Positions 3,516 through 58,857 are shown, numbered from the stretch's first letter. The stretch: 64,000 nucleotides of DNA from Nitrososphaerota archaeon (GCA_023379805.1 JAMCPI010000017.1:83977-147976), one strand, 5' to 3'. Made by a program: numbers and translations. Notes: generated from the letters alone by a model not told the origin.

Positions 3516-3526
3516 CGTGGACTCGC

Positions 3527-5941: not shown

Positions 5942-5947
5942 CTTAGA

Positions 5948-26295: not shown

Positions 26296-26326
26296 GCCAA
26301 ACCACATATCAAAAAACATAGGAAAA

Positions 26327-26366: not shown

Positions 26367-26394
26367 TGTGTCTCTGTTCGTTGCTTGTTTCCTT

Positions 26395-26955: not shown

Positions 26956-27167
26956 TTTTCCATCGTTATTCGGATATTGGTGAGGATAAGTAAGGAACTC
27001 GCCGGAACACCCTTACCATATATGTGGGAACGGTCGTTTCAAACTAGATATTTCAAGATTAATTGGTGGTGCGGGTGTCTGGTATTATTATCTGTGGATT
27101 GAGCTATATACGTTAATTATGTAGGTTGCTGATGAATACCTATATACTAAAGTTAGGTCATTAGGAA

Positions 27168-28358
27168 ATGGAGTATATGCAGAAGGGTAGCCGACAGGCA
27201 CTGCTGGCTGATGTTGCTGTCCGGCGGTGGTATGATCATATGGCTAAGAGTTCAGTGGTTACTACAGATGTATATCTTCGTAGGCTGGGGCATTTCTGCG
27301 AGCTCAACCGGACTACTCCTGGAAAGCTGGTTGCGATGCGCAGCAAGGATTTGGGTGACCTGCTTCTCAGTAATGTGGCTGAGCTTGAGGCGAAGCGTTA
27401 TGCTGGCAGCTATATTGAATCTACTTTGAAGGCGGTGAGGTCTTGGCTCGCATTCAACGGTGTCAAGGTTAAGACCAAGATTAAGGTGAAGGGGGCTCAG
27501 GCTACACCTTCTCTCAAGAATGAGCGGGTTCCGAGTAGAGACGAGCTTAGACGCATATTTCTTTCCGATAACAGAAAGTCGAGGGCTGCGGTTGCGCTTG
27601 TTGCACAGGCCGGGTTAAGGCTTGAGACGCTGGGCAACTACAAGGGTGATGATGGGCTAAAGATAGGTGATTTACCTGAGATGCGTATCGAGCGTGGAGT
27701 GGTTAGCTTCGCGAGGACTCCGACGCTGGTTGTTGTCCGGGATGAGCTCAGCAAGGGTCGGCATCAATACTTTACATTCCTTGCTGAAGAAGGCTGTGAA
27801 TACCTGAAGGATTACTTGGAGGAGCGGCTCAGAGGTGGGGAGATTCTCACAAAGGATTCTGCTATAATCACCCCCAAAGTTGCCAATAAGGAGTTTATTC
27901 GAACAATAAACATCGGCGATATGATTCGAGTCGCGGTTAGAAGCGCTGGTTTCCCTTGGAGACCGTATGTGCTGCGAGTATTCTTCGATACTCAGTTGAC
28001 AGCTGCTGAGAACAAGGGTCTGATGCCGCGTGAATACCACCGCTTCTTCATGGGTCATAAGGGTGAGATGGTGATCAAGTACTCGGCAAAAAAGCGCAGG
28101 CTTCCACGTGACACTGTTGAGGATATGCGGGGTGCTCTCGCTAAGGCTCAGAAGTATCTACAGACACGTAAACCTGAGGAGGAGATGGAGCAGGAGGTCA
28201 CCGTCAACATGAAGAGGCAGCTGTTGCTTGTTGGCGGGTACAGTAAGGAGGAGATTGAAGGGTTTAATCTGGAGCAGATGTCTGCTGAAGAGGTTCAGAC
28301 CAAAGTACGCGAAAAACTCTTAGCGATAATGCTGGCTGCAAAAACTGTCGTAAAATGA
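27168..28358 (+). mobile_element. Tyrosine recombinase / phage-type integrase
   Basis: N-terminal SAM-like domain. Catalytic-residue pattern: R in AQAGLRLETL, YVLRVFF (H/Y-x-x-R), FMGHKG (H) and MVIKYS (Y). Lies between two tRNA genes. Confidence 0.65.
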
Positions 28359-28923: not shown

Positions 28924-30963
28924 TTACGTGGAGGTTTTCACCCAAGCCCGCAGGAACTCCGCAACGCTCCAGGCTTGAGATATGCAGCCGCGAGGTGTGA
29001 AAGGCGGATCAGCGTCGCCGATCTCGCTTATGGAGCCTATGCAGGCTTGGCTTAGATGCGTTTCTATTTCGCCTAGTATCTTCCGTGCACCCGCTTTATC
29101 TTCAGGATACACTTTGAGGTAGGCGTCGATGAAGGGACCTAGTAGCCAGGGCCACACCGTGCCTTGATGGTAGGCTGCGTCGCGCGCTCTTATGTCGCCA
29201 TAATATCTTGGTTTGTAATCCGGATTATCCGGGGATAGGGTTCGCAGCCCTACTGGTGTAAGGAGCTTTTCTGAAACCTCTTCGATAACCGGGCGCCACC
29301 TGTTTTCGTTGAGAACCGGGTAGGGAAGCGAAATAGCCAGCAGCTGGTTTGGACGACAAGCGGCATCATCGCCGCCCCGGTCTCCGTCAACGACATCATA
29401 CAGGTATCCGCCAGCTTCGTACCAGAACCTTCTGTTGAACGACTCCTTAGATCTCTCCGCATGTATAGCCATTGCCTCCGCGTCCTTCCCCCTTCCCACT
29501 TTACTGCACCACTGCTCTAACAGGCGGAGCGCGTTGTACCAGAGCGCGTTAATCTCAACCGCCTTACCTCTCCGAGGCGTTACAACCCAGTCTCCAACCT
29601 TGGCATCCATCCATGTAAGCGGAAGATCCTGTTCTCCCTGAGTGAGAAGCCCATCCGCCGGATCGACCCTGATGTTGAAGCGTGTACCTCGGAGATGGTA
29701 ATCCACGATCTCGAGGAGCTTCGGCAGAAGATGCGTAAGCGTCGCTTTATCTTTAGTGTACTCCAGATAGCGGCCAAGAGCGTGGAAGAACCAAAGCGTA
29801 GCGTCCGCAGTATTGTAACGAGCCTCCTCCTGTCCCTCAGGGAACATGTTCGGGATTAAGCCGTCGCGAATGTAGCTGCCGAAGGTTCGCAGGATCCACC
29901 CCGCCTCAGCGTATCTACCTGTCAGCAGAGTTAATCCTTCAAGGCTTATCATGGTGTCTCTTCCCCAGTCTGCGAACCAGTGGTAACCCGCGATTACTGT
30001 GCGGATTTCGTCGCCGCGGGCGTTGATGCGAGCAGTATCTTGCTGCCTAGTCACCGGTATCACAATGAACTGATCAGCAGCAAGCGCAAGCTCAGCCGGC
30101 AAACCCTCCCTAGCTTCAGGGTGCACAGCGCCAAGCATGAATTCGCGGCGAGTTGACTCTGCAGTAAACGCCTGATTGGATGTGAGCGCCTGAATTATAT
30201 CTGGTGATTCGGTGGATGCTATTAGCACAGCCTTTTCTCCCGGGGACAGGTTGATGCTGAAGAAACCTGGGCTCCAGAGATTCTCTTTGCTTTCGTAACC
30301 CAGGCTTGCCTCCACCCTGTAAATGAGCTCTTCAACAGTGATTCGATCCAGTGTAAAAGGCGCATCATGACCTTCTACAAGCATCCTTAGTGTTGGGAGC
30401 CCAGGGCCAGCGGACACCTCGCAGATGTCGTCAACGAACCTAACTGAGTAAGAGAAACCTGGTGAAGTTGTCACCAGTTGACTTTGAGGACGGAAATGCA
30501 GACAGGGCCGTAAATCCAGTTTAACGGGGGCGTTTCCTGAAAGAGTGTAGCTTAACTGAACTGTGTTCTGCCTGTAGCGAAGCAGCACTCTTCTTTCGAT
30601 GGCGACACCGTTAGCTTCATAACGCCACACCGGCAGGCCCATCTCAAGCCTGAAGCTGGTCAGAAAACAGGCGCCGTGCATCTGCAGCGAGCAGCTCAAC
30701 CGCTCCTCTCCGCTTAGCTGCGTCTTTGCACCGTCAGGGAAGGTAATGGACTCCAAGACATTGTTCAGCAAAACTGTTCTGCCAAGCGGCGAGGGGAGAG
30801 CGGCTATCAGGAAACCGTGGTAGCGGCGCGTCGTCACTCCAGAGATTGTTCCAGAAGCGTAGCCGCCAAGCCCGTTAGTTACAATCCACTCACGGGTGAG
30901 AAGCGGCTCAGGGTTAAGCAGCTCCCTATCAGACCACGGTATCTCTCGTTTAATCGAGGCCAT
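28924..30963 (-). CDS. Glycogen debranching enzyme, archaeal type (amylo-alpha-1,6-glucosidase family)
   Basis: N-terminal REWIVTNGLGGYASGTISGVTTRRYHG, and a C-terminal GDE_C-like (alpha/alpha)6 region with WFADWGRDT. Confidence 0.88.
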   Translation of the reverse strand: MASIKREIPWSDRELLNPEPLLTREWIVTNGLGGYASGTISGVTTRRYHGFLIAALPSPLGRTVLLNNVLESITFPDGAKTQLSGEERLSCSLQMHGACFLTSFRLEMGLPVWRYEANGVAIERRVLLRYRQNTVQLSYTLSGNAPVKLDLRPCLHFRPQSQLVTTSPGFSYSVRFVDDICEVSAGPGLPTLRMLVEGHDAPFTLDRITVEELIYRVEASLGYESKENLWSPGFFSINLSPGEKAVLIASTESPDIIQALTSNQAFTAESTRREFMLGAVHPEAREGLPAELALAADQFIVIPVTRQQDTARINARGDEIRTVIAGYHWFADWGRDTMISLEGLTLLTGRYAEAGWILRTFGSYIRDGLIPNMFPEGQEEARYNTADATLWFFHALGRYLEYTKDKATLTHLLPKLLEIVDYHLRGTRFNIRVDPADGLLTQGEQDLPLTWMDAKVGDWVVTPRRGKAVEINALWYNALRLLEQWCSKVGRGKDAEAMAIHAERSKESFNRRFWYEAGGYLYDVVDGDRGGDDAACRPNQLLAISLPYPVLNENRWRPVIEEVSEKLLTPVGLRTLSPDNPDYKPRYYGDIRARDAAYHQGTVWPWLLGPFIDAYLKVYPEDKAGARKILGEIETHLSQACIGSISEIGDADPPFTPRGCISQAWSVAEFLRAWVKTST

Positions 30964-30973
30964 CGCAGCTCAC

Positions 30974-32890
30974 CTACTTCTCTACCAAGATGTTCTCTTT
31001 GACCGCTTTGAGCACCACTGCGGCTTCACCTAGAACCCGCCAGGCTCCGTCCTCGTCTTCAGGCGGAGGAGTTCCTGCGCCACCGTAAGCCGAGTCCTCA
31101 CTCGACCATATCACTTTCCAGTATCTGTCTTGAGGCGGTGCGAGAAGCGGCTCAGGCGAAGGCTCCAGATCAGCGTCTTTACCGAAGTTGAATAGGATTA
31201 ATCGGTCGTCACCTTCCTCGCCGAAGAAGCGGATGAGAAACGTTTCAGGTGCGAGTATTGCTCCATCTACGCCGCCGAGACGTTGGCTTCGGAAGACAGG
31301 GTCTTCCCGCCTAATTTTAATCAGGTCGCAGAAGAGATTGTAATGCTTGATGTGTTTCTGCCGCTCAGAATGATCTAGTTTGCAGCGTTGAAAGGTCTCC
31401 GGATCACTGGGGTTTGGAAGGGAACGGCGCATCTCAGGTTGAGCCAGACTTCTGAACTGGCTGAGAAACTCCCATCGGCCTTCTCTTACTTGATCAGAGG
31501 TCGGAGCAGGCATGTCGCTGAAGTAGAGAAATGGGGTTGAAGCGGCAAACTCCTGTCCCTGAAACAGCAGCGGGGTCTCTGGGGCGAGCAGGAGAAGCGC
31601 GGTCATCGTCCTGTACCGCCCGGGGCTGGTTAAGTACTGGTAGCGGAGTCCATGTGCGGAGTTTGCGACCTGATCATGGTTTTGCAGGTAATGAACGAAC
31701 TTAGCCGGTTCAATGTTTAGAGCGGGGGTTCCGCGGCGCTTCTCCTGCCAACTGTAATGCTGGCCTTGGTATAGGTAGCCTCTTTTGACGCTGGAGATTA
31801 GCTCTTGGGGGCTGCCGAGATAGTCTATGTAGTATGCTTCTCTGCGACCGGTTAACGTGACCATGGCGGTGTGGTGGAAGTCGTCGTTCCACAGAGCGTC
31901 ACAGCCGTATCCGCCGTTCTCTCTAAGCTTCACAATATGGGCGAGCTGAGGCTCGTTTTCTGCAACAACAATTATCTGTCGTCCTTTACCCGCCTTTTTT
32001 GCTTGCTCGGTGACTGCGGCGACGATGTGCTCGGGTGATGTGTCGTAGATGTTCTGGGTGGCGTCTAGTCTTAAGCCGTCTAGGTGAAACTCGTCTATCC
32101 AGTAGGCTGCGTTGCTGGTGAAGAATTCGCGTACCTGGGTGCTGCCTTCCTCATCATAGTTGATAGCCTCCCCCCAGTCAGTATTCCTGCCGGTGCTGAA
32201 GTAGGTCTTTGAGAATCTTCTGAAAAAGTTGCCTACGTTGCCTACGTGGTTATACACCACGTCAAGTATTACGCCGAGGCCCAGTGCGTGAGCCTTATCT
32301 ACGAAGCTGCGCATATCGTCAGGTGAACCGTACAGATGAGTAGGTGCGAACAGGTTGACCGCATCATATCCCCATCCGAACTGGCCTGGGAAATCAGCCA
32401 CCGGCATAACTTCTAGGAGCGTTATCCCAGTTTTAGCAAGCGCATCTAGTTGCTGCTCGGCGCTCTCCCAGACTCCTTCGGCTGTAAAGGTGCCGATGTG
32501 CATCTCGTACATAACTTGCCCTTGAATCTGTACTCCCGGCCATTTCGCATCAGTCCAAGAGAATCTGTTGGGGTTGACTACCTGCGATGATCCAAAAGGT
32601 CCTTCGGGTTGAAACCTCGAAGCTGGATCTGGAACGAAATCCTCCTTGTCGTTAAGCTGGAAACGATATAGCGTGCCTTCTCCGATGCCGTCAACGGTTC
32701 CGGAGAAGTATCCTCCGCTTTCCCTGTCGAGATCAACCCTGAAGACACCATATACACCTGGGCCTCCTTCTAAAACAACTCTTACTCTTCTGCGATCCGG
32801 TGCCCACACGCGAAAGTTAACTCCGCCCTCCTCCAAGATCTCTGCACCCATAGGTAGGCGGCGTGAAACACCTCCTTCCACTTGATTCAT
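30974..32890 (-). CDS. treZ: Malto-oligosyltrehalose trehalohydrolase (GH13)
   Basis: FRVWAP, YEMHIGTFT, GVILDVVYNH, GLRLDA, VAENE and NHD are GH13 conserved regions with a TreZ-type N-terminus. Confidence 0.88.
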   Translation of the reverse strand: MNQVEGGVSRRLPMGAEILEEGGVNFRVWAPDRRRVRVVLEGGPGVYGVFRVDLDRESGGYFSGTVDGIGEGTLYRFQLNDKEDFVPDPASRFQPEGPFGSSQVVNPNRFSWTDAKWPGVQIQGQVMYEMHIGTFTAEGVWESAEQQLDALAKTGITLLEVMPVADFPGQFGWGYDAVNLFAPTHLYGSPDDMRSFVDKAHALGLGVILDVVYNHVGNVGNFFRRFSKTYFSTGRNTDWGEAINYDEEGSTQVREFFTSNAAYWIDEFHLDGLRLDATQNIYDTSPEHIVAAVTEQAKKAGKGRQIIVVAENEPQLAHIVKLRENGGYGCDALWNDDFHHTAMVTLTGRREAYYIDYLGSPQELISSVKRGYLYQGQHYSWQEKRRGTPALNIEPAKFVHYLQNHDQVANSAHGLRYQYLTSPGRYRTMTALLLLAPETPLLFQGQEFAASTPFLYFSDMPAPTSDQVREGRWEFLSQFRSLAQPEMRRSLPNPSDPETFQRCKLDHSERQKHIKHYNLFCDLIKIRREDPVFRSQRLGGVDGAILAPETFLIRFFGEEGDDRLILFNFGKDADLEPSPEPLLAPPQDRYWKVIWSSEDSAYGGAGTPPPEDEDGAWRVLGEAAVVLKAVKENILVEK

Positions 32891-42483: not shown

Positions 42484-43665
42484 ATGGTAATCAGATTTAA
42501 TCATCTAAAGAGACGTTTTAGTAGCGTCTCTAAGAGAGAGCTTCTGCTTGTATTGGGTTTGATTTGTCTGCTTCTAGTCGCTGCCTTCTCTAATAGCAGC
42601 GGTGCTCCTGTTGCGGCTGGCTCCTTTTTTTCTGCGTATGGTTTGCAGACGTATACCTTGACTTTTCAGGGTTACGACTACAACAATAAGGGGGAGGTGT
42701 CTGTGCTGGTCAACAACCAGGTTGTAGATACGCTGCCCACAAGCTATGCTTCACAGAACGCCAAGACCTTCGTCAGCTTCACACTCGACATCTCAAACTA
42801 CATAGTATCATCAGGAAGCAACACCATCACATTCCGCCAGAACCAGTACTCCTCAGGAGTACAAAACGTAAAAGTCACAGGACCAAACGGAGTACTATTG
42901 AGCGACATCTCGTACCATTCCATATGGATTGGAGGTACAAGCTCGGTAAGCTACAAGTTTAGTACTTCCTCTACAACGTCTACCACAACCACCAAAAGTT
43001 TTCCCACCGGAACATCATGGAATTCTAGGGTAGCCTGTACACCTATCAAGGTCAAGATTTCGGACATAACTGCACGAGCTACAGGGTCTACATCTTACGC
43101 AAACAGTATGTTTAGTCCTGGGATAACTGTGCCCTCGTATGCGCCAGCAGGTTCCGTGGCTAAGCGTTGGTTGACTAGTGGTCCAACTCCTTCAGGGTGG
43201 GTTTCTCCAGGGCCTCCTTGTTCCATTAGGAACAGTAAAGGACAGGTTGTAGGTGTCTTTGTAGAGATTGATGGTGTGAAGCGGGCAAAAGTGGTGGATG
43301 AGGACTACCACAGCACTTACGACCCGATTAACGGTGGGCGTTCAATGCCCAACGGTAAAATCTGGCCAGACAGCACCTTCAACATTTACGATCCAACAGT
43401 CTCTTCAGGCAGCTGCTCTTCACCCACCGACTCTAACTGTTATGCACGTATTCACCTAGAAATTGACAGTAACTGGAAGGCTGCTGGTTACTGCGGCTCA
43501 GGAACAGCATGCGATAATGCGGCTTTAGCCTCGAAAACAAGCTCCTATTCAACACTCATAGATGTGCAGGGATTCATATTCTGGGATCCAGGTCACGAGT
43601 TAGATCAGTGGCATAGCTTCAGCGGGTGGGAGCTTCACCCACTAACAGCATGGCGGGTGCACTAA
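42484..43665 (+). CDS. Secreted hypothetical protein with a short Ser/Thr linker and a Cys-containing C-terminal domain
   Basis: Signal anchor LLLVLGLICLLLVAAFS. No family motif recognised. Confidence 0.5.
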   Translation: MVIRFNHLKRRFSSVSKRELLLVLGLICLLLVAAFSNSSGAPVAAGSFFSAYGLQTYTLTFQGYDYNNKGEVSVLVNNQVVDTLPTSYASQNAKTFVSFTLDISNYIVSSGSNTITFRQNQYSSGVQNVKVTGPNGVLLSDISYHSIWIGGTSSVSYKFSTSSTTSTTTTKSFPTGTSWNSRVACTPIKVKISDITARATGSTSYANSMFSPGITVPSYAPAGSVAKRWLTSGPTPSGWVSPGPPCSIRNSKGQVVGVFVEIDGVKRAKVVDEDYHSTYDPINGGRSMPNGKIWPDSTFNIYDPTVSSGSCSSPTDSNCYARIHLEIDSNWKAAGYCGSGTACDNAALASKTSSYSTLIDVQGFIFWDPGHELDQWHSFSGWELHPLTAWRVH

Positions 43666-45146: not shown

Positions 45147-45260
45147 CGGGCTGTTAGAGCCTCCGCTAACTGGAGATGACTAAGTGATTCATTTACAAAA
45201 ATTAACGGTTACAAAAATAGGGAGTAGACGATCCCTAGTAAGGATCGTCTAGTGTATCTT

Positions 45261-47510
45261 CTATTTCTTTCTCATTACTAGTACTGCTGCGCCTACGATA
45301 GCTATTACTGCTATACCGACTGCCGCATAGGTGACTTCTGATGGTAGACCTGTTGTCTGTGTTACTTGTGAGGTTACTGTTGTGGTCTGGGTTTTAGCTG
45401 GTTGTGTTGATGTAACTGTTGTTGCTGTTGTTGCGGTTGTGGTTGCGGTTGCAGTGGTGGTGGATACACTTGTAGTGGCGGATGTGGTGGTAGCTGTTGT
45501 GGTTGTGGTAGTTGTTGCTGTGGTTGTAGCAGTAGTTGTAGCTGTGGTTGTTGTTATTGCTGTTGTAGTTATCGTGGTGGCTTTAGCCGCCTTGCCGGAC
45601 AGTCCTAGTGCGACTACGCTTCCAGGTGTGTTGCTGAGGCGAGTTCCTACCATTGTGAAGATCTTCATGTTTCCGTCGGAGTCTGCACCGATTGTTGGTC
45701 CGACTGTGATTGCTGAGCCGAGGTTCTTCTCGAACAGTGCTTTACCTGTGTCTGAGTCTAGTGCTCTGAAGTAGCCGTCTGTGAAGCCTGACATGACTAG
45801 TCCTGGAGTTACTATCATGTGTGCGCGTTGCTGTCCTATGCTGTAGAAGTAGGTCCATTTGGTGTTGCCGGTTGTTGCGTCTCTGGCCACGATGGTGGTG
45901 TTGAAGACTGGGTATGCCTTTGTCATGAAGAGGTTTCCTCCTTGTACGTATGGGAGCTCTCGTGTTAGAGTGAACTGCAGTGCTACTGCGTAGTGGAACA
46001 ATGTGTTTGTCTGTGGGTCATAACTCATATCCGTGCCGAAGATGCCGTTACCGAAGTACGGGTATACAATGCATGGAATAGTGCAGTATTTGCCTGGTTC
46101 ACCTGGAGCTTTTGCGGGGTAGCTGATCCAACCCCACTCCCTCATGTCGTATTGGCTGAATGGATCTGGTCGGAAGTACTTGATACCATCTGGAATAACC
46201 TTTAGTACCGAGGCACCGATTTGTCCAGTCTTTACTTGATCCTCCACGGTATCTTTAGTCCACAAGGGCTTACCTGTCTTAGCATCCATTGCATACAGAA
46301 TGCCTTCCTTGCATCCCTTCATGTAGACTTTACCTAGACCCTTGACATCAGCTAATACTCCGCTCCAGTTGCAGTCGTAGTCGTAGGGGTCATGCGGGAA
46401 GGGTTGTAGCCACCAGACTCTCTTTCCAGCATTCATGTCTATCGCCATGATTGTGGAGCCGTAGAGTCTTGGTCCGGGTGTCTGTGATAGGTTTGAGTAC
46501 GGTCCTTGGTTACCTGTTTGTGTGTAGACTATTCCTGTGTCTTCATCTACGACCATCTGTCCCCAGTTAGCTGTGACACCAGCCCATTTAGTGGGTGCCT
46601 GTCCTGGTTGAGCCCAGTCCCATTCAAGTCCTGCGAGGTTCTTGGCTTTTACTTCACTGCATGGGAAGGTTTGGAAGAAACCTATGTCGCACTCCTGTAG
46701 AGCCCAGTCTTTGGTGTGTTGATCTTGTGGTGGGAAGCTGTATACTCTCCATATGATGTTATATGGTGCATCCATGTTGATGCCCATTGTAACGTGTCTT
46801 GAGTCTGGTCCCACTAGGGTGCTGTGCATGCTACCGGGTAGAACATAGATGAACATGTGTCCTTTCTCGTAGGTTCCAATTTGGTTCATTGCGGGTAGGT
46901 TGTAGTTTGATCCGTACTTGTAGAGATTGCCTGGTACGTTCTTGCATAGGTCTTGTATTTGGAACTTGTCTTTACCTGTCTTGGCGTCTACTGCGTACAT
47001 ATCGCAGGCTGAGCCGAAGTCAAGTATTGCATCTCCACCCTCCCAGTATCGGATGCCGTGGTAGTGGCTTATGCTAGATATCACTACAGGCAGTCTATCT
47101 CTGGCTGCTGTGATATTGATTACGTAGTCATGTGTCCATTTCTGGGCGCCGGTCTTAGCGTCAATGGCGTAAAGGCGCTTGTAGTTGGTCATGATGTAGA
47201 CAACGCCGTTTCTCACGATTGGAGGAGTGCTGGAGCCTTCACCTAGGGTAACTGCTTGTAGCGCAGTTGGCGCTAGGGATTTGCTTCCAATTGGGAAGAT
47301 CCACTTTACCTCCAGATCGCCTACGTTATCCTTGTTGATCTGGGTCTGCGGGCTATAGTTTTGTGCCCACGAGTTGCCGTTTGTGTTCTGCCAATCCTTA
47401 CCGTTATCTGCTAGGGGTGCTGCGTACGCGAATGTTGTTGCGAATGTGCTGAACGCGAGAACGGCTAGTACAGTTAGTACAGTAACTCTGTGAGAGTTTA
47501 GATACTTCAT
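45261..47510 (-). CDS. PQQ-dependent dehydrogenase (methanol/ethanol family) with signal peptide, Thr-rich stalk and C-terminal TM anchor
   Basis: DWQNTNGNSWAQNYSPQTQINKDNVGDLEVKW..STPPIVRNGVVYIMT..LYAIDAKTGAQKW, repeated AxDxxTGK propeller motifs and PHDPYDYD. I moved the start to the ATG at 47510 (MKYLNSHR.., signal ..AYAAP). Confidence 0.85.
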   Translation of the reverse strand: MKYLNSHRVTVLTVLAVLAFSTFATTFAYAAPLADNGKDWQNTNGNSWAQNYSPQTQINKDNVGDLEVKWIFPIGSKSLAPTALQAVTLGEGSSTPPIVRNGVVYIMTNYKRLYAIDAKTGAQKWTHDYVINITAARDRLPVVISSISHYHGIRYWEGGDAILDFGSACDMYAVDAKTGKDKFQIQDLCKNVPGNLYKYGSNYNLPAMNQIGTYEKGHMFIYVLPGSMHSTLVGPDSRHVTMGINMDAPYNIIWRVYSFPPQDQHTKDWALQECDIGFFQTFPCSEVKAKNLAGLEWDWAQPGQAPTKWAGVTANWGQMVVDEDTGIVYTQTGNQGPYSNLSQTPGPRLYGSTIMAIDMNAGKRVWWLQPFPHDPYDYDCNWSGVLADVKGLGKVYMKGCKEGILYAMDAKTGKPLWTKDTVEDQVKTGQIGASVLKVIPDGIKYFRPDPFSQYDMREWGWISYPAKAPGEPGKYCTIPCIVYPYFGNGIFGTDMSYDPQTNTLFHYAVALQFTLTRELPYVQGGNLFMTKAYPVFNTTIVARDATTGNTKWTYFYSIGQQRAHMIVTPGLVMSGFTDGYFRALDSDTGKALFEKNLGSAITVGPTIGADSDGNMKIFTMVGTRLSNTPGSVVALGLSGKAAKATTITTTAITTTTATTTATTTATTTTTTTATTTSATTSVSTTTATATTTATTATTVTSTQPAKTQTTTVTSQVTQTTGLPSEVTYAAVGIAVIAIVGAAVLVMRKK

Positions 47511-47844
47511 ATACTTCAAGAGAGCCGCGTAGCTGCATGAGATATAAGCCTTACGCAAAAAAACGTAAATAAAATATATGCTTTGAGCCGAATCTATAAT
47601 CTTAGTATAAACTACGGTCAAAATAATATACTTGTATAAACCTAAATTTAATAAAAACGATACTGTAAAACCAGAGATCTGGACGAAAAAAGTAACTGAG
47701 CAATGAGAAAAAAAGAAAGTTGGATATGTCTGATCAGTTAGGCTGTTTTCATCACTATTACTGCTGTTTCACGCGGCGTTTCGAGGCGGATAGCATAAAT
47801 GCGCCTGAGTCAGGAGGTTAGCCATTCTTGGATCTGGTGTTTAG

Positions 47845-48952: not shown

Positions 48953-49810
48953 TTATATGTTGGAGAAGTATCCTAGTACTACAGGTACATCTGTTCCTGC
49001 ATGGAACAGGATTGATCCAAGTAGGCTGTTGGTTTTCTGTGCAACTGCTCCGAATGCTAAGCCGAGGAGGAACGTTATGGCGAGAAAGATGAGGAGAGCA
49101 GGCGTGTAGTGTGATCCGAGGTGAGATAGTGAGAAGATTACGGCTTGCAGGAGATTAGCGGTACCGGCTCCAAGCACAGTTTCATATCTTTTCAGGAAAA
49201 GCCCCCTATACCATAGTTCCTCCCTTAGGCCGTTGGCGAAAACGAACGCCAGTATCCAAGGTGACCATGAGACTACGCGTTCAACGGTCAGGTCTCGGCC
49301 GCCGAACAGCATCGTGGAGGAGGGTATAGCGGTGGCGAGGAAGAACAGGAAGGTTGCAGCGCCTATGATGAGCCCTATTCGAAGCCTTCCCTTCTTCAGG
49401 TAAATCGAGTCCATACTGTTACCTGAAAACTTGGTCAACAGAACTATCGAGGCGACTATCGATACGGTGCTCAGTATCTTCTGGAAAACTATGCCGTCAA
49501 TTGATGACGGTAGGATTCCTTCTCTATATATTGGCCAAACTGCGCCAACAACGACTTGTTCTAGCGCGAATGCGAGAGCGGCGGTGAAGAAGGCGAGCAG
49601 GACCTGAAAGTGTTTTTCCAGACGATTGCTCCTACGCAGCAGCACTATAGCTACTAGAAACGGAGCGGTAATAATGATGCGATATACAGTTTTGGTGTCC
49701 CCGGTCATGAAGATTGGGGCGACAAAAACCGTTAAACCGCATGCTAGAAAAAACATGAATAGCATAGCGCGGTGCAGCACGTCTTTGCTGTCGTTGAACT
49801 TGTTCTCCAT
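48953..49810 (-). CDS. CPBP (CAAX/Abi) family intramembrane glutamic endopeptidase
   Basis: EELWYRG, FSLSH and FHAGTD motifs in TM helices. I moved the start to the ATG at 49810 (MENKF..). Confidence 0.8.
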   Translation of the reverse strand: MENKFNDSKDVLHRAMLFMFFLACGLTVFVAPIFMTGDTKTVYRIIITAPFLVAIVLLRRSNRLEKHFQVLLAFFTAALAFALEQVVVGAVWPIYREGILPSSIDGIVFQKILSTVSIVASIVLLTKFSGNSMDSIYLKKGRLRIGLIIGAATFLFFLATAIPSSTMLFGGRDLTVERVVSWSPWILAFVFANGLREELWYRGLFLKRYETVLGAGTANLLQAVIFSLSHLGSHYTPALLIFLAITFLLGLAFGAVAQKTNSLLGSILFHAGTDVPVVLGYFSNI

Positions 49811-49974
49811 AAGACAATCGTGTGCGCCAGCGCAGTCTCTAAAAAATCTTTCACAATAGTACGGAAATAGTAAAATTAGGTTTAATTCGGAGAAAGGCTT
49901 CGTTAAAAGTTGAGGTTTGGTGGCGGTGCCCCACCCCGTATGGGTGGGGTACACGTTCTTCTTAGGTTGTTAAG

Positions 49975-53630: not shown

Positions 53631-53776
53631 AGCAAGAAACCATCTGAATCTTGCGGCACCACAGACCTACAAGAATCAAGATCAAACGTTAACTGATATT
53701 GACAAGCTAGTTTTCGCTGGTTAACTCAACTTTCTAATCCTTCCAGTCAGCCGATAGGTGCCGGCTAACAAAGCAC

Positions 53777-54694
53777 CTACACTCTTTTTCTTAGAATGAC
53801 AATTGCAAGGACTGCAGCAACTGCAGTGGCACCTATTGCCCAAGCGTAAACTAGAGGTTCTGTAACTCGCTCAGTGGATATCTCTGTAACTGTGCTTGTG
53901 AATGTGGTTAACGCATTCCCTGTTGCCGACGTGCTTGTAATGGTCGGTAGGTTGGGTGTTGCGGCCGTGGACATAGTAGTGGTTGAGTTACCAGTAGATG
54001 TTACAGTAACAGTTCTAGTCGAAGTTACTGTTGATGTAATTGTTCTGTTAATGGACGAGCTTGTGCATGAGGTATTTGTTGTTATGCTGGTGGTGATTGT
54101 TGAAGTGTTGCCATTGACTATCGTTAGAATGGTAGGGTAACTTGTCTCTTCGATGTTAATTCCGGTCACATAGAGACTCAGAGACAGATTATAGCTTCTT
54201 ACAGTTGTATCTGGCGCAGCTGTTATTTGCATTGTTACTGTTCCGTGGGAACTCGGTGCAAGTGTTAAGTTAGACGGAGTAAAATTGTATGTGATGCCGT
54301 TAGGTGTCCGGAAAGAGGGACCACCGGTAAACCACCCATTAGTCCAAGGAGGAATCCCGCCGTACTTCCACGCTCCGATATAGACAGTTAGCTGCTTCTC
54401 ATAGGACGTGAATATTATGTTAAACGTTCCTGTAGTGCCTTGTTTTAAAACAAATACCGGCACATTGGAATATTTTACGTCAGGATTCATCATAACCTTA
54501 TCGAAACCCTTAGCATTATCAAGATCAAGATAGTAGTCGATATCACTGTGTGTAGGTTGCTCCAAAGCGTAAGATGAGTAAATGGCACCACAGGAAACCA
54601 GTAACAGTTGAGCCGCTAGTATTAGTGTAGCTACATGCAACAAGATATTCAATCTAATCAGACGATTTAATGGGGGGAAGTTAGAATTAAGCAT
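53777..54694 (-). CDS. Secreted protein with a Thr-rich stalk and C-terminal TM anchor plus basic tail
   Basis: Signal anchor, a ~190-aa domain, T/S-rich low complexity, then ..VYAWAIGATAVAAVLAIVILRKRV at the C-terminus. Confidence 0.55.
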   Translation of the reverse strand: MLNSNFPPLNRLIRLNILLHVATLILAAQLLLVSCGAIYSSYALEQPTHSDIDYYLDLDNAKGFDKVMMNPDVKYSNVPVFVLKQGTTGTFNIIFTSYEKQLTVYIGAWKYGGIPPWTNGWFTGGPSFRTPNGITYNFTPSNLTLAPSSHGTVTMQITAAPDTTVRSYNLSLSLYVTGINIEETSYPTILTIVNGNTSTITTSITTNTSCTSSSINRTITSTVTSTRTVTVTSTGNSTTTMSTAATPNLPTITSTSATGNALTTFTSTVTEISTERVTEPLVYAWAIGATAVAAVLAIVILRKRV

Positions 54695-55256
54695 TACTGG
54701 ACAAGACGCTGCAATTATCTAGACACAGTTGGGCTTTCAGTATTATTATTGTGGAAAAGTAGGTCCAGTGATTATCTTTTCAGCACAATTCTCCGTTGAG
54801 TGGGCGTTAGATCCCTTTTGACTTTATTATATCAAAAGCTGATAAGCGTTACTCTACCCTTGGAGTTTGCATTCCGCCTGAACGATACGATGGAGGAAAA
54901 GATACAACGCCTCACCTCATCTTCGGATATGAAGGGTTGAGAATATATCCCCTCTGACGCCGGAAGAATCACTATTTACCTTCTCTAGACCCGAAAGCAT
55001 GTCCACCTCGTAAACATTTTTCAGACCAAAGATCTTTTTGCTCAATTATCACTTGAACATCCAATACGAAACCACCTGCATACTACTGTTAATATCATCC
55101 ACAACGTGTCCTACTTACGTGACAAATTGCCCCGTACGATCATCGTTGCCTTTACCCACAGTTAGAGTAATAAGAAAAACAAAAATGAAGGGGGCGAACC
55201 GACTTCAGGTTGGTCTAGAGTAAGTTGAGTCGGTTCAGCCTATTCTTTGCTCTGCT

Positions 55257-55976
55257 TTAGATATGTGGTATTGATTCTGCTATCTTCACTAGCTCTTGCA
55301 ATGGGAGGTTGGCGATTACTTCGTAATGTATTCCTTCTCTGCTCCACCATTGGATATCGCCTTTGTCCTGTATCGGTGTGTAGATGGGGTCATACCCGTA
55401 ACCTGGGACACTTCCCACCATTATGGGTTGAGCGCGGTTTGGAACTACTGTGGTTACTGGAAGATTTTCAGTATGTTGATTTCCGTCTTTGTCAATTATG
55501 GTTATTGTCTGTGTCTGCTGATTCTCTATTGCAAGAATCTTTTGGAAGCTTTCTAACGAGGTGCCGTCTCTCTGCGCTATAATTACTATCTGAACATCTT
55601 GGGTGTAGAAACCGATCCTCTCTAGTTTGGGATTAGTATATGTCAGTACTGCGAGACTACCATCGTCAACCATCTTAACCTTGGACAGTGAGGTCCCTTC
55701 AGGCAGATACGTAGGTTGACCGAGCCTTGACGATGCCATTACCTCGGACGGAGTAGCGTCCCTACCCGCATAATCCAAATTATAAGTCGGTCTTAGCGTT
55801 CCACTTTGGTATTCTATCTCACCATTGCTTACAGGCCGAGCCACTACTGGAGATGAGTGAATTGTTGCAGAGAAGCCTGTTGACGATAAGGCGAGAGCGA
55901 CTACAGCGATTATTATCGCTCCGACTGTAATGACTGATCCGATAACTTTCAGACTTGGTTTCATCATTATGGGCAC
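55257..55976 (-). CDS. Membrane-anchored DUF4367-like protein
   Basis: N-terminal TM. The C-terminal GDIQWWSREGIHYEVIANLPLQELVKIAESI resembles the DUF4367 terminus. 10-nt overlap with the upstream gene. Confidence 0.45.
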   Translation of the reverse strand: MPIMMKPSLKVIGSVITVGAIIIAVVALALSSTGFSATIHSSPVVARPVSNGEIEYQSGTLRPTYNLDYAGRDATPSEVMASSRLGQPTYLPEGTSLSKVKMVDDGSLAVLTYTNPKLERIGFYTQDVQIVIIAQRDGTSLESFQKILAIENQQTQTITIIDKDGNQHTENLPVTTVVPNRAQPIMVGSVPGYGYDPIYTPIQDKGDIQWWSREGIHYEVIANLPLQELVKIAESIPHI

Positions 55977-58180
55977 GCCACCTGTGGATCCGTATACATG
56001 CAGTACTCGTTAACGGACATCTTATAAGACTCCAGGGGATCATAACTTGGTGCATAGCCGGAAATTTCTTTGAAACTGTAACTTTTCCCCCAGTTGATCC
56101 AATTTAGGGTGCTACCGACTTTCTGAGCATTCTGTAGATCTTTGAAGTGCGCGGTGCCTGAACTCCTAGTGTTGTGCATTTCTTGCATTACCTTCGTTAG
56201 GGTGCTGCTGCTGTTCGTCAGCGATGCTCCAGTGAGGACGATTGTGGAGTGGTCGTTACTTTCAATTGTTGAGTTCCAAGTATAGTAGCTTGGATTAGGA
56301 TCTCCGTTCACTGTAAAGGTTGCCCAATGGTCCACGGTCGGAAATATGTTTGGACTAGCCCAAGTGGAAATGTCTGTGTATACAAGTCCGCCGCCAGTTT
56401 GTTGATAGCCCCTGAAGTAGTGCGGTGTTGACATGGCTGTCATGCCGTAAGTGGTGTAGTTTCCTTTGAACCAGCCTAATTCTATCCATAGCCCGTTTAT
56501 TTCTGTTGCGACTATCATTGCTCCGCCTACGCTGGCATCAGTTTGATAGGTCCCACATATGTACGGATTTGTAATCAATGACTTACCCTTAAGACCATAC
56601 TTTAGGTAATTGTCATAAGTTTTGTTATCTATTCCATATGCGTAGATATATCCCCCACTGGTCAGTTCTATGCCGCAGTTTTGTGATCCTGCTACGCCAA
56701 CTCTTGAGTCGCTGACTGTGATGCCGTCAACCCAGACGCTCCAGGCGGTATAACTTTGAGCTGAAGAGGGTACTCCCACCCTTATGCTGCCAGGTTGAGC
56801 AGAACTTGTGTCCAGACCTGTAATTGTGATTATTTCTGAGCCATTTAGATATACGCGGTATTCACCGGCTGTTGAATCTCTGACGTACTTGAATTCAATG
56901 TTCTGCCAAGTGCTGTTCTGGATATTCAAGGGTGTAGAGTAGTTGAACTTGGTGGCTGGGACAAATCTCTTGAGTTCAATCATCTCTTTGCCGTTGCTAC
57001 CTCTGTAGAGTCGTAACGCGGCTATGTCGCTATCGGTGCTGCTCTTGAGCTCGAAGAACTCGGTCAAGTTACCAGAATCATGTGGAAACCTGTCTGTTCT
57101 CACATACATCTGCATCCAGAAGGTGTTGCCTAGGTTTGTGAAGTTCTCGCTGCCAGAGTAGTAGCCCCAACCGGTTTTAGATGTTGCAGCGAACTTTAAC
57201 GACTGTGAGCCTTCGACCTTCGTACCCGTATCGTTGGAGAATGTGCCGCTGCTGGTGGAGCTCCAATCCCAGTTCTCATAGAGACCTTTCTCGAAGCCAT
57301 CCCTGAACACTACACCTGTGTAGGGGGTGCCGATTCTGGTTGTGTTGCTCACCTGCACATCGTCCACCCATGCAGACCAGCTCTGCTGTGAGGAGGGGTA
57401 AGCTGAGTAGGGTGCTCCGACACGCATCGACTTAGGTTTGGTTTCCGTGCCAGACCGAATAGTGTCAATGTTTTTCATCGTTATTACATCCATGCCGTTA
57501 ATGTAAACTCTGAACTCGCCCTGTGTTGAGTGGCGGTACATCTTGAACTCAAGCGTATACCATGTATTTGCTTGCAGGGCCAGGTTACCGGAGTAGTTGA
57601 ACAGTGCAGGAGATGGAAGATAATACTTTAATTCGAGCATCTCCTTGTCGTTTTGACCTTTGTAAAGCCGTACCCCTACAATAGGATTGGCAGCGCTGTT
57701 ATAGATCTGTAGGACCTCGACCTTCTTCTCAGCTTGGCTTGGATACGGGCTGACCTTAACATACATCTGCACCCACATTGTATCGGTTATCTTGTCAAGG
57801 GGTGCTTCACCTACCCGAGCATAGCCGTAGCTGCTGTTCGTATTGCCGGCGAACTTGAGGGATCGAGAGCCAACGATACCTACATCATTAGAGAGTGTGC
57901 CGCTCACCTGATTCGTCCAGTTCCAGTTGCCCGTGGAGTTGGTACCAGCTTCAAAACCGTTCCTAAATACGACGTTAGGAGCCGCTGCCGCTTTCGGGAG
58001 TGTTGAAGGAGCTACAGTGAATAAGGTTAGTGGAAAGATTGACGCGATTAGCAGTGTGATTACTGCTGTGCTTGCAAGTTTGGGTGCTGCTCTTCTTACA
58101 GTTTTGATCGCTTGCCGACCTACCCGCCGGAGCATTCGTTTGGCTCCGAAAAGGGCTGGTGGGCCGGTGTCGATCCGCAT
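55967..58180 (-). CDS. Large exoprotein with two tandem ~210-aa ConA/LamG-like repeats and a distinct C-terminal domain
   Basis: The repeats (57329-57973 and 56696-57313) share VVFR(N/D)GFE..W(N/D)W..SGT(L/F)SND..S(R/Q)SLKFA...W(V/M)QMYV...LRLY(K/R)G..KEM(L/I)ELK...E(F/Y)RVY(I/L)NG...RVG.P...W(V)D. The start is uncertain (M at 58180 or 58135). Confidence 0.6.
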   Translation of the reverse strand: MRIDTGPPALFGAKRMLRRVGRQAIKTVRRAAPKLASTAVITLLIASIFPLTLFTVAPSTLPKAAAAPNVVFRNGFEAGTNSTGNWNWTNQVSGTLSNDVGIVGSRSLKFAGNTNSSYGYARVGEAPLDKITDTMWVQMYVKVSPYPSQAEKKVEVLQIYNSAANPIVGVRLYKGQNDKEMLELKYYLPSPALFNYSGNLALQANTWYTLEFKMYRHSTQGEFRVYINGMDVITMKNIDTIRSGTETKPKSMRVGAPYSAYPSSQQSWSAWVDDVQVSNTTRIGTPYTGVVFRDGFEKGLYENWDWSSTSSGTFSNDTGTKVEGSQSLKFAATSKTGWGYYSGSENFTNLGNTFWMQMYVRTDRFPHDSGNLTEFFELKSSTDSDIAALRLYRGSNGKEMIELKRFVPATKFNYSTPLNIQNSTWQNIEFKYVRDSTAGEYRVYLNGSEIITITGLDTSSAQPGSIRVGVPSSAQSYTAWSVWVDGITVSDSRVGVAGSQNCGIELTSGGYIYAYGIDNKTYDNYLKYGLKGKSLITNPYICGTYQTDASVGGAMIVATEINGLWIELGWFKGNYTTYGMTAMSTPHYFRGYQQTGGGLVYTDISTWASPNIFPTVDHWATFTVNGDPNPSYYTWNSTIESNDHSTIVLTGASLTNSSSTLTKVMQEMHNTRSSGTAHFKDLQNAQKVGSTLNWINWGKSYSFKEISGYAPSYDPLESYKMSVNEYCMYTDPQVACP

Positions 58181-58346
58181 TTTTACGACACCTTTTGTGG
58201 TGTCACTTGTGTACATGCGGTTGCACATGTACCATAGAACGGTAAAAATGTTACTTCTATGGTACATATAGATTACTTAGAGAAACCTTAATAGGCAGGC
58301 TTAACAGTATCTAAGACGCCCAAACCGTAAAGAGCGTTGAGCGACA

Positions 58347-58562
58347 GTGCCAAAGACTAAAGGGGAGCAAACCACAGTTAGAATCACAGCTGGATTGAAG
58401 GACGCGGTAAACGAGTACCTGCAAACAGAGGAAGCAAAGCAGCTAGGACTCGATTCCCAGTCAGATGTTGTAGCCCAAGCATTAAGAGAGTTCCTCAATG
58501 ATCAGGGGTATTACCGCCGCCGTTTTGGCTCCGCTTCTGGTGCCGAAAAAGATACCAGGTAA
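58347..58562 (+). CDS. Ribbon-helix-helix (CopG-like) protein (tentative)
   Basis: TTVRITAGLKDAVNEYL...SQSDVVAQALREFL fits the RHH pattern. The 3' end overlaps the convergent ORF by 68 nt. Confidence 0.45.
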   Translation: MPKTKGEQTTVRITAGLKDAVNEYLQTEEAKQLGLDSQSDVVAQALREFLNDQGYYRRRFGSASGAEKDTR

Positions 58563-58857
58563 GGATAAGATACATCAGCTTACCGTCGTCGGTGTTAATC
58601 TGCTTCTTCACCTCTTTTAGCATCGAGTGAATGTCAAGGTTGCGCGCAAAGTAGTTCTTGAACTCCAGCAACGCGGAGTCATCCTCCTCCCGCGCCTCTA
58701 TCAGCGATTTCAAAGACAGCTCAAGATCCTCAACATCAGCGTCCAGATCATCAAAGTGCTGCTGAGTCATCTCAATATGCTCGTCCAGGGCGCGCTGCAT
58801 CTTCTCAAGGCTACTCTTCACATATTTTTCCAGAGACTCGGTATCTTGAGGAGACAT
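58495..58857 (-). CDS. Acidic coiled-coil hypothetical protein
   Basis: ORF only. Heptad-like acidic sequence. The C-terminal 20 aa look non-native and overlap the RHH gene. Confidence 0.4.
   Translation of the reverse strand: MSPQDTESLEKYVKSSLEKMQRALDEHIEMTQQHFDDLDADVEDLELSLKSLIEAREEDDSALLEFKNYFARNLDIHSMLKEVKKQINTDDGKLMYLILTWYLFRHQKRSQNGGGNTPDH

Follow-up and report, generated by a model that had tools for sequence, protein, structure and literature searches.

A putative surface-tethered quinoprotein dehydrogenase with a D-Y-D motif in a thaumarchaeal PQQ-type family

Does the D-Y-D motif of an archaeal PQQ-type propeller protein denote a rare-earth enzyme? The gene that raises this question lies in the window, the whole 64-kb stretch of Nitrososphaerota DNA that was analysed. 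A reading of the sequence alone had described its product as a surface-tethered dehydrogenase with a lanthanide-type signature. The features on which the answer depends are listed below, with coordinates counted from the first letter of the window.

45261..47510 (-): complete coding sequence of a thaumarchaeal PQQ-type 8-bladed propeller protein (ORF list, translation, PF01011, 1959 homologues)
47421..47510 (-): Sec-type signal peptide, aa 1-30 (hydropathy scan and family consensus; presumed cleavage site)
45591..47420 (-): 8-bladed beta-propeller domain, approximately aa 31-640 (AF2 model and Foldseek)
46824..46826 (-): His229 in G226-S-M-H229, at the apparent position of the metal-binding Glu (MDH E177/ExaA E179/XoxF E172; alignment)
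46563..46565 (-): Trp316, counterpart of the PQQ-stacking Trp (ExaA W248/MDH W243; alignment of the 'apW' motif, 121/121)
46509..46511 (-): Asn334 in T-G-N-Q-G-P, counterpart of the metal-ligand Asn (ExaA N266/MDH N261; GNPGPW alignment)
46374..46382 (-): D377-Y378-D379 (translation, conservation, alignments to ExaA, PedH, XoxF5 and mGDH)
46308..46373 (-): Cys380...Cys400-Lys401-Glu402 (covariation, conservation, alignment)
45369..45581 (-): Thr-rich low-complexity stalk, aa 644-714 (composition scan; presumed function)
45264..45335 (-): C-terminal TM anchor, aa 726-746, with the basic tail RKK (hydropathy, family consensus)
45218..45251 (-): terminator-like hairpin and T-run just past the stop codon (terminator scan)

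The open reading frame at 45261-47510 on the minus strand starts with ATG (MKYLN...) and encodes 749 aa followed by a stop. A longer version with a TTG start extends to 47621; its numbering accounts for the residue previously called D416, which is D379 here (379 + 37). The predicted signal peptide comprises a basic n-region, a hydrophobic core at aa 9-27, and A-Y-A followed by AP. In the hydropathy scan the hydrophobic N-terminal stretch as a whole spans aa 9-30 and ends in A-Y-A, and ...ALAYAAPLA is retained at the N-terminus of the family consensus. The stalk is 71 aa long, with 63% Thr and 70% Ser+Thr, and is presumed to be an O-glycosylated spacer. In the family consensus the TM anchor is preceded by a conserved G-L-P-x-E-V-T-Y motif. 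The hydropathy and composition scans thus agree with the proposed signal peptide, ~70-aa Thr-rich stalk and C-terminal anchor. A PGF-CTERM sorting signal was considered and rejected, since a profile search of the protein gave a sub-threshold score (13.9 bits, E 0.033; cutoff 24.5). The protein resembles PGF-CTERM/archaeosortase substrates in architecture only, through its Thr-rich linker, TM helix and basic tail. Cysteines are found at positions 169, 189, 274, 284, 380, 400, 476 and 480, none of them adjacent, and the canonical Cys-Cys column aligns to non-Cys residues; the vicinal pair is absent, as had been noted.

The propeller has the fold of the quinoprotein dehydrogenases. It matches Pfam PF01011 (PQQ) with 142 bits (E 3.5e-41), and its AF2 model has a pLDDT of 94.3 and a pTM of 0.94. 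The best 30 Foldseek matches were all PQQ methanol, alcohol or sorbose dehydrogenases (E 1e-32 to 1e-27, TM 0.58-0.75); for MDH, XoxF, ADH and PedH, the values were E ~1e-32 to 1e-29 and TM 0.65-0.75. Alignment of the subfamily to the canonical enzymes by hhalign gave a probability of 100% and an E-value of 3e-43. The score for TIGR03075, the methanol/ethanol family, was 160.2 bits and did not reach the curated cutoff of 480, and that for TIGR03074, the membrane glucose/quinate dehydrogenases, was 100.9 bits, where the cutoff is 833. The protein is therefore a relative of the curated TIGR03075 family and not a member of it: of the earlier assignment to the methanol/ethanol PQQ-dehydrogenase family, the 8-bladed propeller fold stands, while curated membership does not.

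Scores below both curated PQQ cutoffs could also be expected of a propeller that had kept only the fold, without cofactor ('empty') or without catalytic activity, and that served, for instance, in binding or as a scaffold at the surface. A local 114-bit match to TIGR04528 ('acido-empty-quinoprotein', cutoff 650) points in the same direction, as do the name 'BamB' that certain sources give to some homologues and the substitution of several PQQ-contacting residues: in the alignment, MDH E55 is replaced by S/T and R109 by His151, and F-G/A and Q-R stand where blades 7 and 8 have the NW and W motifs. No pqq genes were seen in the window, which fits this alternative too. However, BamB-like propellers come later in the Foldseek list (E 1e-14, TMq 0.4), ~17 orders of magnitude in E-value from the dehydrogenases. 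Another argument against an empty propeller comes from the active site in the subfamily alignment of 121 sequences. Trp316, which aligns to the 'apW' motif of ExaA, is invariant (121/121), and so are D377, D379 and K401; position 334 is Asn in 120/121, E402 is found in 120/121, and His149/151/229/239 and Arg238/562 are kept in at least 113/121. Such conservation across paralogs with only 50-60% identity argues for a selected active site. In the available passages of PMC7300363 and PMC10640624, these lineages are further described as having a PQQ synthase gene and very high expression of the homologues. Taking both sides together, we consider an empty or non-catalytic propeller unlikely.

The gene is, by its sequence, a member of a large PQQ-type family of Thaumarchaeota/Aigarchaeota. 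This family is expanded in Thaumarchaeota that do not oxidise ammonia and is found in Aigarchaeota as well. We scored 1959 homologues, the best at 74% identity, and the best 120 had 48-74% identity to the window protein. Nearly all of those among the best 120 with an organism name came from Thaumarchaeota/Nitrososphaerota MAGs, and one partial protein was labelled Thorarchaeota; homologue names include Thaumarchaeota, Nitrososphaerales and Caldarchaeum. This degree of conservation and number of homologues are far beyond chance. The closest MAG match (NC_groundwater_674) was 78% identical. Many genomes of the family hold several copies; a related groundwater MAG has at least 14 paralogs or loci, including a 7-gene tandem array. 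A blastp search against all window ORFs found no paralog elsewhere in the 64 kb. In an NJ tree, a rough one with some saturated distances that was used solely for monophyly and separation, the subfamily was monophyletic in 40/40 replicates and apart from the XoxF/ExaA/Halomarina clade. An archaeal PQQ enzyme of this kind had been regarded as unusual, a view that does not survive ~2000 homologues, multi-copy genomes and traits published in 2020 and 2023.

The motif PHDPYDYDCNW begins at aa 372, and the DYD codons (GACTACGAC) lie at 46374-46382, exactly where they had been placed. The DYD region aligns to WDFS in ExaA, WDFD in PedH, WDYD in XoxF5 and WDMD in mGDH. D377 corresponds to the catalytic/metal Asp (ExaA D316, MDH D303), and D379 to ExaA S318 and to the later of the two Asp residues in PedH WDFDG and XoxF5 WDYDG. 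The residue singled out in the sequence-only reading thus falls on the lanthanide-coordinating Asp position of PedH/XoxF. K401 aligns to ExaA R344 in 'adRnG' and is the counterpart of MDH R331 and mGDH K493; that is, an invariant Lys replaces the Arg that is adjacent to PQQ C5 in MDH. Positions 380 and 400 covary (CC in 118 sequences, AA in two, TG in one), and the two cysteines probably form a disulfide flanking the active-site Asp pair and Lys401. The covarying pair is consistent with an oxidising extracytoplasmic location. D-x-D-C...C-K is a signature of the clade as a whole.

If the second Asp acts as in XoxF (D301) and its PedH equivalent, then Asp379 would coordinate Ln3+ and the protein would be a genuine lanthanide-dependent PQQ dehydrogenase. 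The precise alignment of an invariant D379 with the lanthanide Asp of PedH and XoxF5 favours this, and the available passages of Aylward & Santoro (PMC7300363) flag DYD in thaumarchaeal enzymes as lanthanide-type. However, DxD is present in 65/76 divergent representatives of the wider archaeal clade; it is an ancestral feature of that whole clade and does not single out the window gene. Nor is DxD alone proof of lanthanide use, because D466-M-D468 occurs in E. coli mGDH, an enzyme active with Ca, Mg, Zn or Sr. As a lanthanide-type signature, the DYD is therefore correct in position and lacks diagnostic value, being clade-wide and matched by D-M-D in mGDH.

A second change at the predicted metal site, which the earlier reading had missed, bears on the choice of metal. 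The position of the metal-binding Glu appears to be occupied by His229, and position 229 is His in 113/121 subfamily members, while 46/76 wider-clade representatives have E or D in this column. In a profile-to-PDB alignment, the offset of the wider-clade G-x-x-E equals that of the canonical GnGgaE. A global hhalign alignment of low confidence paired ExaA E179 with Val233; this pairing was dropped, since bridging sequences and the G-x-x-E offset favour His229. A match by loop length to E. coli mGDH pairs D354/N355 with S230/T231, a caveat on the His229 assignment. To our knowledge, this Glu supplies a carboxylate in every solved Ca or Ln enzyme. Compared with the wider clade, the subfamily shows three coupled changes: from E to H at position 229, from N to E at 402, and from E to G/A at 492. 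The Glu-to-His change, as judged from these alignments, is the sole new detail of the window gene; the available passages of PMC7300363 and PMC10640624 mention neither it nor the Cys380-Cys400 pair.

By general coordination chemistry, hard Ln3+ is poorly bound by an imidazole nitrogen, so the replacement of a carboxylate by His counts against lanthanide use. So does the lack of lanthanide-uptake or lanmodulin-like genes in the window. We regard lanthanide dependence as a possible but doubtful reading. It is equally conceivable that Asp379 makes up for the missing carboxylate of Glu at a divalent ion. The protein would then be a divalent-metal PQQ dehydrogenase, using Ca2+/Mg2+ or, given the His, a borderline or transition metal. 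The count of carboxylates is in keeping with this: the Ca site has two (Glu+Asp), the Ln site three (Glu+Asp+Asp), and the site here two (Asp+Asp+His). Moreover, mGDH, a divalent-metal user, likewise has Lys for Arg, no Cys-Cys and DxD, and the coupled H229/E402/G/A492 changes suggest a site that was remodelled rather than decayed. Against a divalent ion, the wider clade combines Glu/Asp with DxD, the full 'lanthanide' ligand set, and its ancestral state may have been Ln-binding; the argument for the divalent ion is, besides, drawn purely from sequence. A divalent metal is a reading that we entertain with some doubt. It is also conceivable, though improbable, that the site lost the otherwise universal Glu, was rebuilt as His229/Asn334/Asp377/Asp379 with the support of a Cys380-Cys400 disulfide, and uses a metal unseen so far in 8-bladed quinoproteins. 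Such a site might take a transition metal, or a lanthanide with nitrogen among its donors. If true, the archaeal cell surface would display a metal/PQQ chemistry that is new.

The neighbourhood of the gene offers no partner. Downstream lie a GerW/YtfJ gene (PF09579, 54 bits), a DUF2953 gene (PF11167, 33 bits) and a weak second YtfJ-like ORF (21.9 bits; cutoff 25), and their adjacency had been thought noteworthy. A functional unit of the PQQ gene with GerW(YtfJ)/DUF2953 would be consistent with their shared strand, the gap of only 114 bp, and the retention of the arrangement in a related MAG contig. However, synteny between that contig and the window extends over window positions ~35 to 53.6 kb and resumes near 58.9-59.5 kb (63-96% aa identity, mostly 72-96%), and the adjacency that they share is therefore just an inherited one. 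GerW/DUF2953 genes lie beside none of ~30 other paralog copies in 19 loci, and the terminator-like hairpin, from a scan with two terminator-like sites found against 0.2 expected, stands between them and the PQQ gene. The adjacency is thus incidental, confined to the syntenic orthologous locus, and we rejected the functional linkage as very improbable. No conserved accessory gene was found around the 19 related loci, where the recurrent clusters consisted of paralogs and antisense shadow ORFs, and an ABC-transporter ATPase family recurred at only 5/19. A scan of 50 of the 58 window ORFs of at least 120 aa (the eight omitted are all <500 aa) found no pqqABCDE, cytochrome c, cupredoxin or lanthanide-uptake genes. 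A radical-SAM ORF at 13334-14467 was considered as PqqE and rejected, since it belongs to TIGR04084.

The reading that we consider probable is that of a surface-held quinoprotein dehydrogenase of the thaumarchaeal PQQ-type family. The gene would be monocistronic, and its product secreted and tethered as a type-I membrane protein. Held outside the cytoplasmic membrane, it would bind PQQ and oxidise some alcohol, sugar or aldehyde, and the electrons would pass on to the respiratory chain. A blue-copper protein or the quinone pool has been proposed as acceptor in the available passages of the literature, because these archaea lack cytochrome c. The residues of the catalytic core are retained: Trp316 at the PQQ-stacking position, Asn334, Asp377 as the catalytic Asp, and Lys401 for MDH Arg331, as in E. 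coli mGDH. The metal site would be remodelled to His229/Asn334/Asp377/Asp379 in place of Glu/Asn/Asp(/Asp), and the probable Cys380-Cys400 disulfide may stand in for the missing vicinal Cys-Cys near the site. Points against this explanation are the changed PQQ contacts, the TIGR03075 score and the TIGR04528 match, as well as the lack of a pqq gene or redox partner in the window and of an accessory gene conserved beside paralogs.

In the abundant heterotrophic Thaumarchaeota of the deep ocean, acidic soils and groundwater, enzymes of this kind are believed to be the chief energy-harvesting oxidoreductases. The question of whether they require rare earths bears on lanthanide biogeochemistry and on the reach of the D-x-D rule. 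The window gene is a further copy in a described family and leaves the energy-harvesting picture unchanged; the rare-earth dependence of its product is unproven. It adds a caution, since in this thaumarchaeal subfamily D-x-D appears to coexist with the loss of the metal-binding Glu. Thus, calls of 'lanthanide-dependent' made from the motif only should be tested biochemically for archaeal quinoproteins.

Comparison with known systems places the protein among quinoproteins of its own phylum. The acidobacterial 'empty quinoproteins' (TIGR04528) and BamB-type proteins share the PQQ-repeat propeller scaffold; in contrast to them, the window protein has invariant active-site residues, its TIGR04528 match is local and its BamB fold match far weaker. 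The PQQ-ADH on a plasmid of Halomarina sp. BND7 (WP_254547170.1) is likewise archaeal and has DYD, but it has retained Cys-Cys together with the Glu of GGEYG and the Asn of GNPGP, and it clusters with bacterial XoxF/ExaA, whereas the window protein does not. XoxF, PedH and ExaF (TIGR03075; PDB 4MAE, 6DAM, 6OC5, 6ZCW) share with it the 8-bladed fold (TM 0.65-0.75), an extracytoplasmic location, the stacking Trp, the Asn ligand, the catalytic Asp and the extra Asp of D-Y-D. Identity to them is ~18-21%, with a family score of 160 bits against the cutoff of 480, and the window protein differs in having no Cys-Cys disulfide, apparently His for the metal Glu, and Lys for Arg331. They are soluble in the periplasm, while the window protein is tethered by a C-terminal TM helix, and its gene lacks the XoxG/XoxJ-type neighbours of XoxF systems. 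E. coli mGDH (Gcd, TIGR03074) is, like the window protein, an outward-facing, membrane-bound PQQ propeller with D-x-D (W-D466-M-D468), no Cys-Cys, and a Lys (K493) in place of Arg331. Its metal-ligand loop is also remodelled (D354/N355), although the ligand loops of the two proteins differ, and its five anchoring TM helices are N-terminal, whereas the window protein has a single C-terminal TM helix; mGDH also reduces ubiquinone directly.

The described families of heterotrophic marine Thaumarchaeota (HMT) and Gagatemarchaeaceae resemble the window protein in more respects. According to the available passages of Aylward & Santoro (2020, PMC7300363), HMT genomes carry 4-19 PQQ-DHs, which are found among their genes with the highest expression. 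All 21 HMT variants lack Cys-Cys, four have DYD and five DXD; signal peptides and TM domains occur in most of them, and there is a PQQ synthase. The available passages of Sheridan et al. (2023, PMC10640624) report up to eight PQQ-DH copies in Gagatemarchaeum genomes (Gagatemarchaeaceae, Group I.1c) and a gain of pqqC at the mesophilic thaumarchaeal ancestor. As far as these passages go, both families have in common with the window protein the phylum, the 8-bladed propeller, DYD/DxD without Cys-Cys, a signal peptide with TM anchoring, multi-copy and often tandem genes, the lack of a cytochrome c partner, and divergence from all characterised enzymes. Unlike the marine HMT copies, the window gene comes from a groundwater or terrestrial relative.

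The mechanical ORF on the minus strand opens with a TTG (45261-47621), and an ATG at 47510 (MKYLNSHRV...) agrees with the N-termini of homologues; residues are counted from this ATG. The features discussed are as follows:

45261-47510, minus strand: quinoprotein gene, 749 aa
46374-46382, minus strand: D-Y-D codons, GACTACGAC
46308-46373, minus strand: stretch from Cys400 to Cys380
45218-45251: terminator-like hairpin with T-runs, 3' of the stop codon
43688-45146, minus strand: GerW/YtfJ, DUF2953 and a weak second YtfJ-like ORF

Together, the analyses show a secreted propeller whose PQQ-ADH-like pocket is conserved and which is tethered by a C-terminal TM helix through a stalk rich in Thr. Hydropathy placed an N-terminal hydrophobic core at aa 9-30, with A-Y-A at its end followed by A-P, and a C-terminal hydrophobic segment at aa 726-746, followed by RKK; Thr makes up 63% of aa 644-714. 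The signal peptide, stalk and anchor described in the sequence-only reading were thus borne out. Its position for D-Y-D was exact in the translation (PHDPYDYDCNW from aa 372, D-Y-D at aa 377-379), and the canonical vicinal Cys-Cys, which it had not found, is indeed lacking, as none of the eight cysteines (169, 189, 274, 284, 380, 400, 476, 480) are adjacent. This descriptive part is confirmed.

The protein matched Pfam PF01011 (PQQ) with 142 bits. Among the NCBIfam models, it scored 160 bits with TIGR03075 (methanol/ethanol family; cutoff 480) and 101 bits with TIGR03074 (membrane glucose/quinate family; cutoff 833), and had a local match of 114 bits to the 'acido-empty-quinoprotein' model. 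The sub-cutoff scores make it kin of the curated PQQ families without membership in any. AlphaFold2 modelled aa 30-645 from 121 sequences with a pLDDT of 94.3 and a pTM of 0.94. Without exception, the model's best 30 Foldseek matches in the PDB were 8-bladed PQQ dehydrogenases for methanol, alcohol or sorbose (E 7.5e-32 to 8e-27, TM 0.58-0.75, identity 17-22%), followed by BamB, YxaL and tetrathionate hydrolase at E ~1e-14. The earlier assignment to the methanol/ethanol family therefore held for the fold, but not at the level of the TIGR03075 cutoff.

To map the active site, the protein was aligned to P. aeruginosa ExaA (1FLG) by phmmer, by profile HMM and by hhalign, and all three agreed; ExaA numbers follow the PDB chain, which reproduces the literature N266 and D316. 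Trp316 corresponds to the stacking Trp248, Asn334 (T-G-N-Q-G-P) to Asn266, Asp377 to the catalytic/metal Asp316, and Lys401 to Arg344 (MDH Arg331). Across the family alignment of 121 sequences Trp316, Asp377 and Lys401 are invariant, and Asn334 is present in 120. Asp379, also invariant, falls on ExaA Ser318, the position occupied by Asp in PedH (WDFDG) and XoxF5 (WDYDG), so the proposed placement of the second Asp of D-Y-D on the lanthanide-coordinating Asp holds. A propeller without a cofactor is improbable, since the active-site residues are invariant among paralogs of only 50-60% identity.

Other positions diverge. The counterpart of MDH Glu55 is Ser or Thr, and that of MDH Arg109 is the invariant His151, in a conserved H-x-H motif. 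For the metal-binding Glu, direct alignment was ambiguous and hhalign pointed with low confidence to Val233; the column was resolved by bringing in 79 divergent representatives of full length, together with reference enzymes from annotated plasmids and E. coli K-12. In the wider archaeal clade, whose profile aligns end to end with solved PQQ-ADHs (1KB0, E 7e-79), the His229 column holds Glu in 24/76 and Asp in 22/76. The clade's G-x-G-x-x-E lies at an offset from strand B identical to that of the canonical G-n-G-g-a-E, with the conserved Arg of G-v-R-G after it; the query reads L-P-G226-S-M-H229...R238, with His in 113 of the 121 subfamily members and Ile in 7. Because of this Glu/Asp column, the matching offset and the query motif, the Glu ligand appears to have been replaced by His229 in this subfamily. 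Two further changes are coupled to this one: at position 492, E-S-D of the wider clade becomes G/A-T-D, and at position 402 C-K-N becomes C-K-E (120/121).

Cys380, immediately after Asp379, and Cys400, immediately before Lys401, covary perfectly (CC 118, AA 2, TG 1). The wider clade keeps them in 60/76 and 59/76, respectively, and the D-x-D-C...C-K signature runs through wider Thaumarchaeota/Aigarchaeota. Covariation and conservation together indicate a putative disulfide adjoining the active site. The C169/C189 and C274/C284 pairs show no variation, and C476/C480 form another covarying pair; multiple disulfides would fit an extracytoplasmic location.

D-x-D is necessary in characterised lanthanide enzymes, and the field treats the motif as an indicator. 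The invariant Asp379 on the PedH/XoxF5 position speaks for lanthanide dependence here. However, D-x-D occurs in 65 of the 76 divergent representatives, and so reads as an ancestral trait rather than one peculiar to this gene. The motif is also present in E. coli mGDH (W-D466-M-D468), which functions with Ca, Mg, Zn or Sr, and which Voutsinos et al. could only predict to be 'facultatively' Ln-dependent (PMC11996626). Judged by alignment, the metal site would hold two carboxylates, as in Ca enzymes (Glu + Asp), versus three in Ln enzymes, with an imidazole in place of the Glu. In general coordination chemistry, nitrogen donors make poor Ln3+ ligands. We therefore regard a lanthanide enzyme as possible but doubtful, and a divalent-metal PQQ dehydrogenase, which the carboxylate count favors, as similarly likely; a rebuilt His-containing site with a different metal specificity seems unlikely. 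Overall, the sequence-only interpretation is partly supported: its residue assignment stood, and the motif alone is no proof of the possible rare-earth dependence that it raised.

Among the window's ORFs of at least 120 aa (50 of 58 scanned), no pqq genes, c-type cytochrome, cupredoxin or recognisable lanthanide-uptake gene was found; the sole radical-SAM ORF is TIGR04084, not PqqE. Three minus-strand ORFs lie downstream: GerW/YtfJ (PF09579, 54 bits; TIGR02874, 46.7 bits, under its cutoff), DUF2953 (33 bits) and the second YtfJ-like ORF. This module is named after Bacillus sporulation proteins. The sequence-only reading had counted this neighbourhood among the unusual points. A functional link was rejected: only the orthologous copy, on the syntenic MAG contig where the trio is kept, has GerW/DUF2953 neighbours, and the hairpin intervenes, so we take the adjacency to be incidental. 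Across 19 related loci the only recurrent neighbours were further paralogs and, in just 5 loci, an ABC-transporter ATPase.

The window is syntenic with JACPRH010000034.1, a contig of the groundwater MAG Thaumarchaeota archaeon NC_groundwater_674 (JACPRH01), over ~35-53.6 kb and again near 58.9-59.5 kb, with protein identities of 63-96%, mostly 72-96%; its source is thus a related thaumarchaeon. Two segments of the window have no counterpart on this contig, which is collinear apart from them, and may be strain-specific insertions: 48953-49954, with an Rce1-like CAAX protease, and 53700-58850, with three ORFs (53777-54694, 305 aa, no family match; 55257-55976, DUF4367; 55967-58267, 766 aa, no Pfam/NCBIfam match). 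The ORF at 27168-28358, within a few kb of a tRNA-Leu (24440-24527), weakly resembles a XerA-like tyrosine recombinase (27 bits, cutoff 220), and the region 24440-28358 may be the remnant of an integrated element. ORF 42484-43665 encodes a secreted or anchored 393-aa protein with a Thr/Ser-rich stretch and no family match, whose domain forms three tandem repeats elsewhere in the groundwater MAG (contig L012, ~5404-6498). A glycogen-debranching enzyme (GDE_C/GDE_N) and alpha-amylase/CBM48 pair, with an F420-dependent luciferase-like oxidoreductase (TIGR03619) nearby (28924-32890 and 25366-26295), is in keeping with the F420-using heterotrophy described for Group I.1c Thaumarchaeota.

We propose that the stalk, possibly O-glycosylated, would keep the enzyme in the space beneath or inside the S-layer. 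PQQ and metal would bind at His229/Asn334/Asp377/Asp379 above Trp316, with Asp377 as the likely catalytic base and Lys401 polarising the PQQ C5 carbonyl. The electron acceptor might be a blue-copper protein or the quinone pool, on the model of heterotrophic marine Thaumarchaeota (HMT), which lack cytochrome c and for which these acceptors were proposed (PMC7300363).

An anchored archaeal D-Y-D quinoprotein had been considered unusual, a view that did not survive: a word-indexed search scored 1959 homologues (top identity 74%), and the kind is already described. Listed homologues with an organism name came from Thaumarchaeota/Nitrososphaerota MAGs, except one partial protein labelled Thorarchaeota, and several often share one contig. 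No paralogs were found inside the window. Among GTDB species representatives, JACPRH01 alone has at least 14 loci, and seven or more of its paralogous PQQ-type propeller genes stand in tandem on JACPRH010000020.1 (1659-19166). In an exhaustive profile search of clusters at 50% identity, 154 reached E <= 1e-30 and 3833 reached E <= 1e-10; named divergent representatives were from Candidatus Caldarchaeum and Nitrososphaerales.

According to Aylward & Santoro 2020 (PMC7300363), HMT genomes carry 4-19 PQQ dehydrogenases each, very highly expressed and accompanied by a PQQ synthase gene; among the variants none has Cys-Cys, four have DYD and five DXD, and signal peptides and TM domains occur in 15/21 and 19/21. 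Sheridan et al. 2023 (PMC10640624) report that a Gagatemarchaeum genome (Gagatemarchaeaceae) may contain up to 8 copies, arranged as neighbouring pairs or trios, the same genes in Nitrososphaerales and Nitrosocaldales, and an inferred pqqC gain at the mesophilic thaumarchaeal ancestor. Given these reports, anchored, DYD-bearing archaeal quinoproteins are already described, and this gene therefore adds another member. The Glu-to-His replacement and the DxDC...CK disulfide signature, neither of which figures in the passages of the two papers that a term search brought up, would be modest, purely alignment-based refinements. By comparison, plasmid NZ_CP100456.1 of the haloarchaeon Halomarina sp. 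BND7 (3251-4963) encodes a methanol/ethanol-type PQQ dehydrogenase that is canonical throughout, having Cys-Cys, GGEYG (Glu), GNPGP (Asn) and WDYD. Thus, textbook lanthanide-type quinoproteins exist in cultured archaea.
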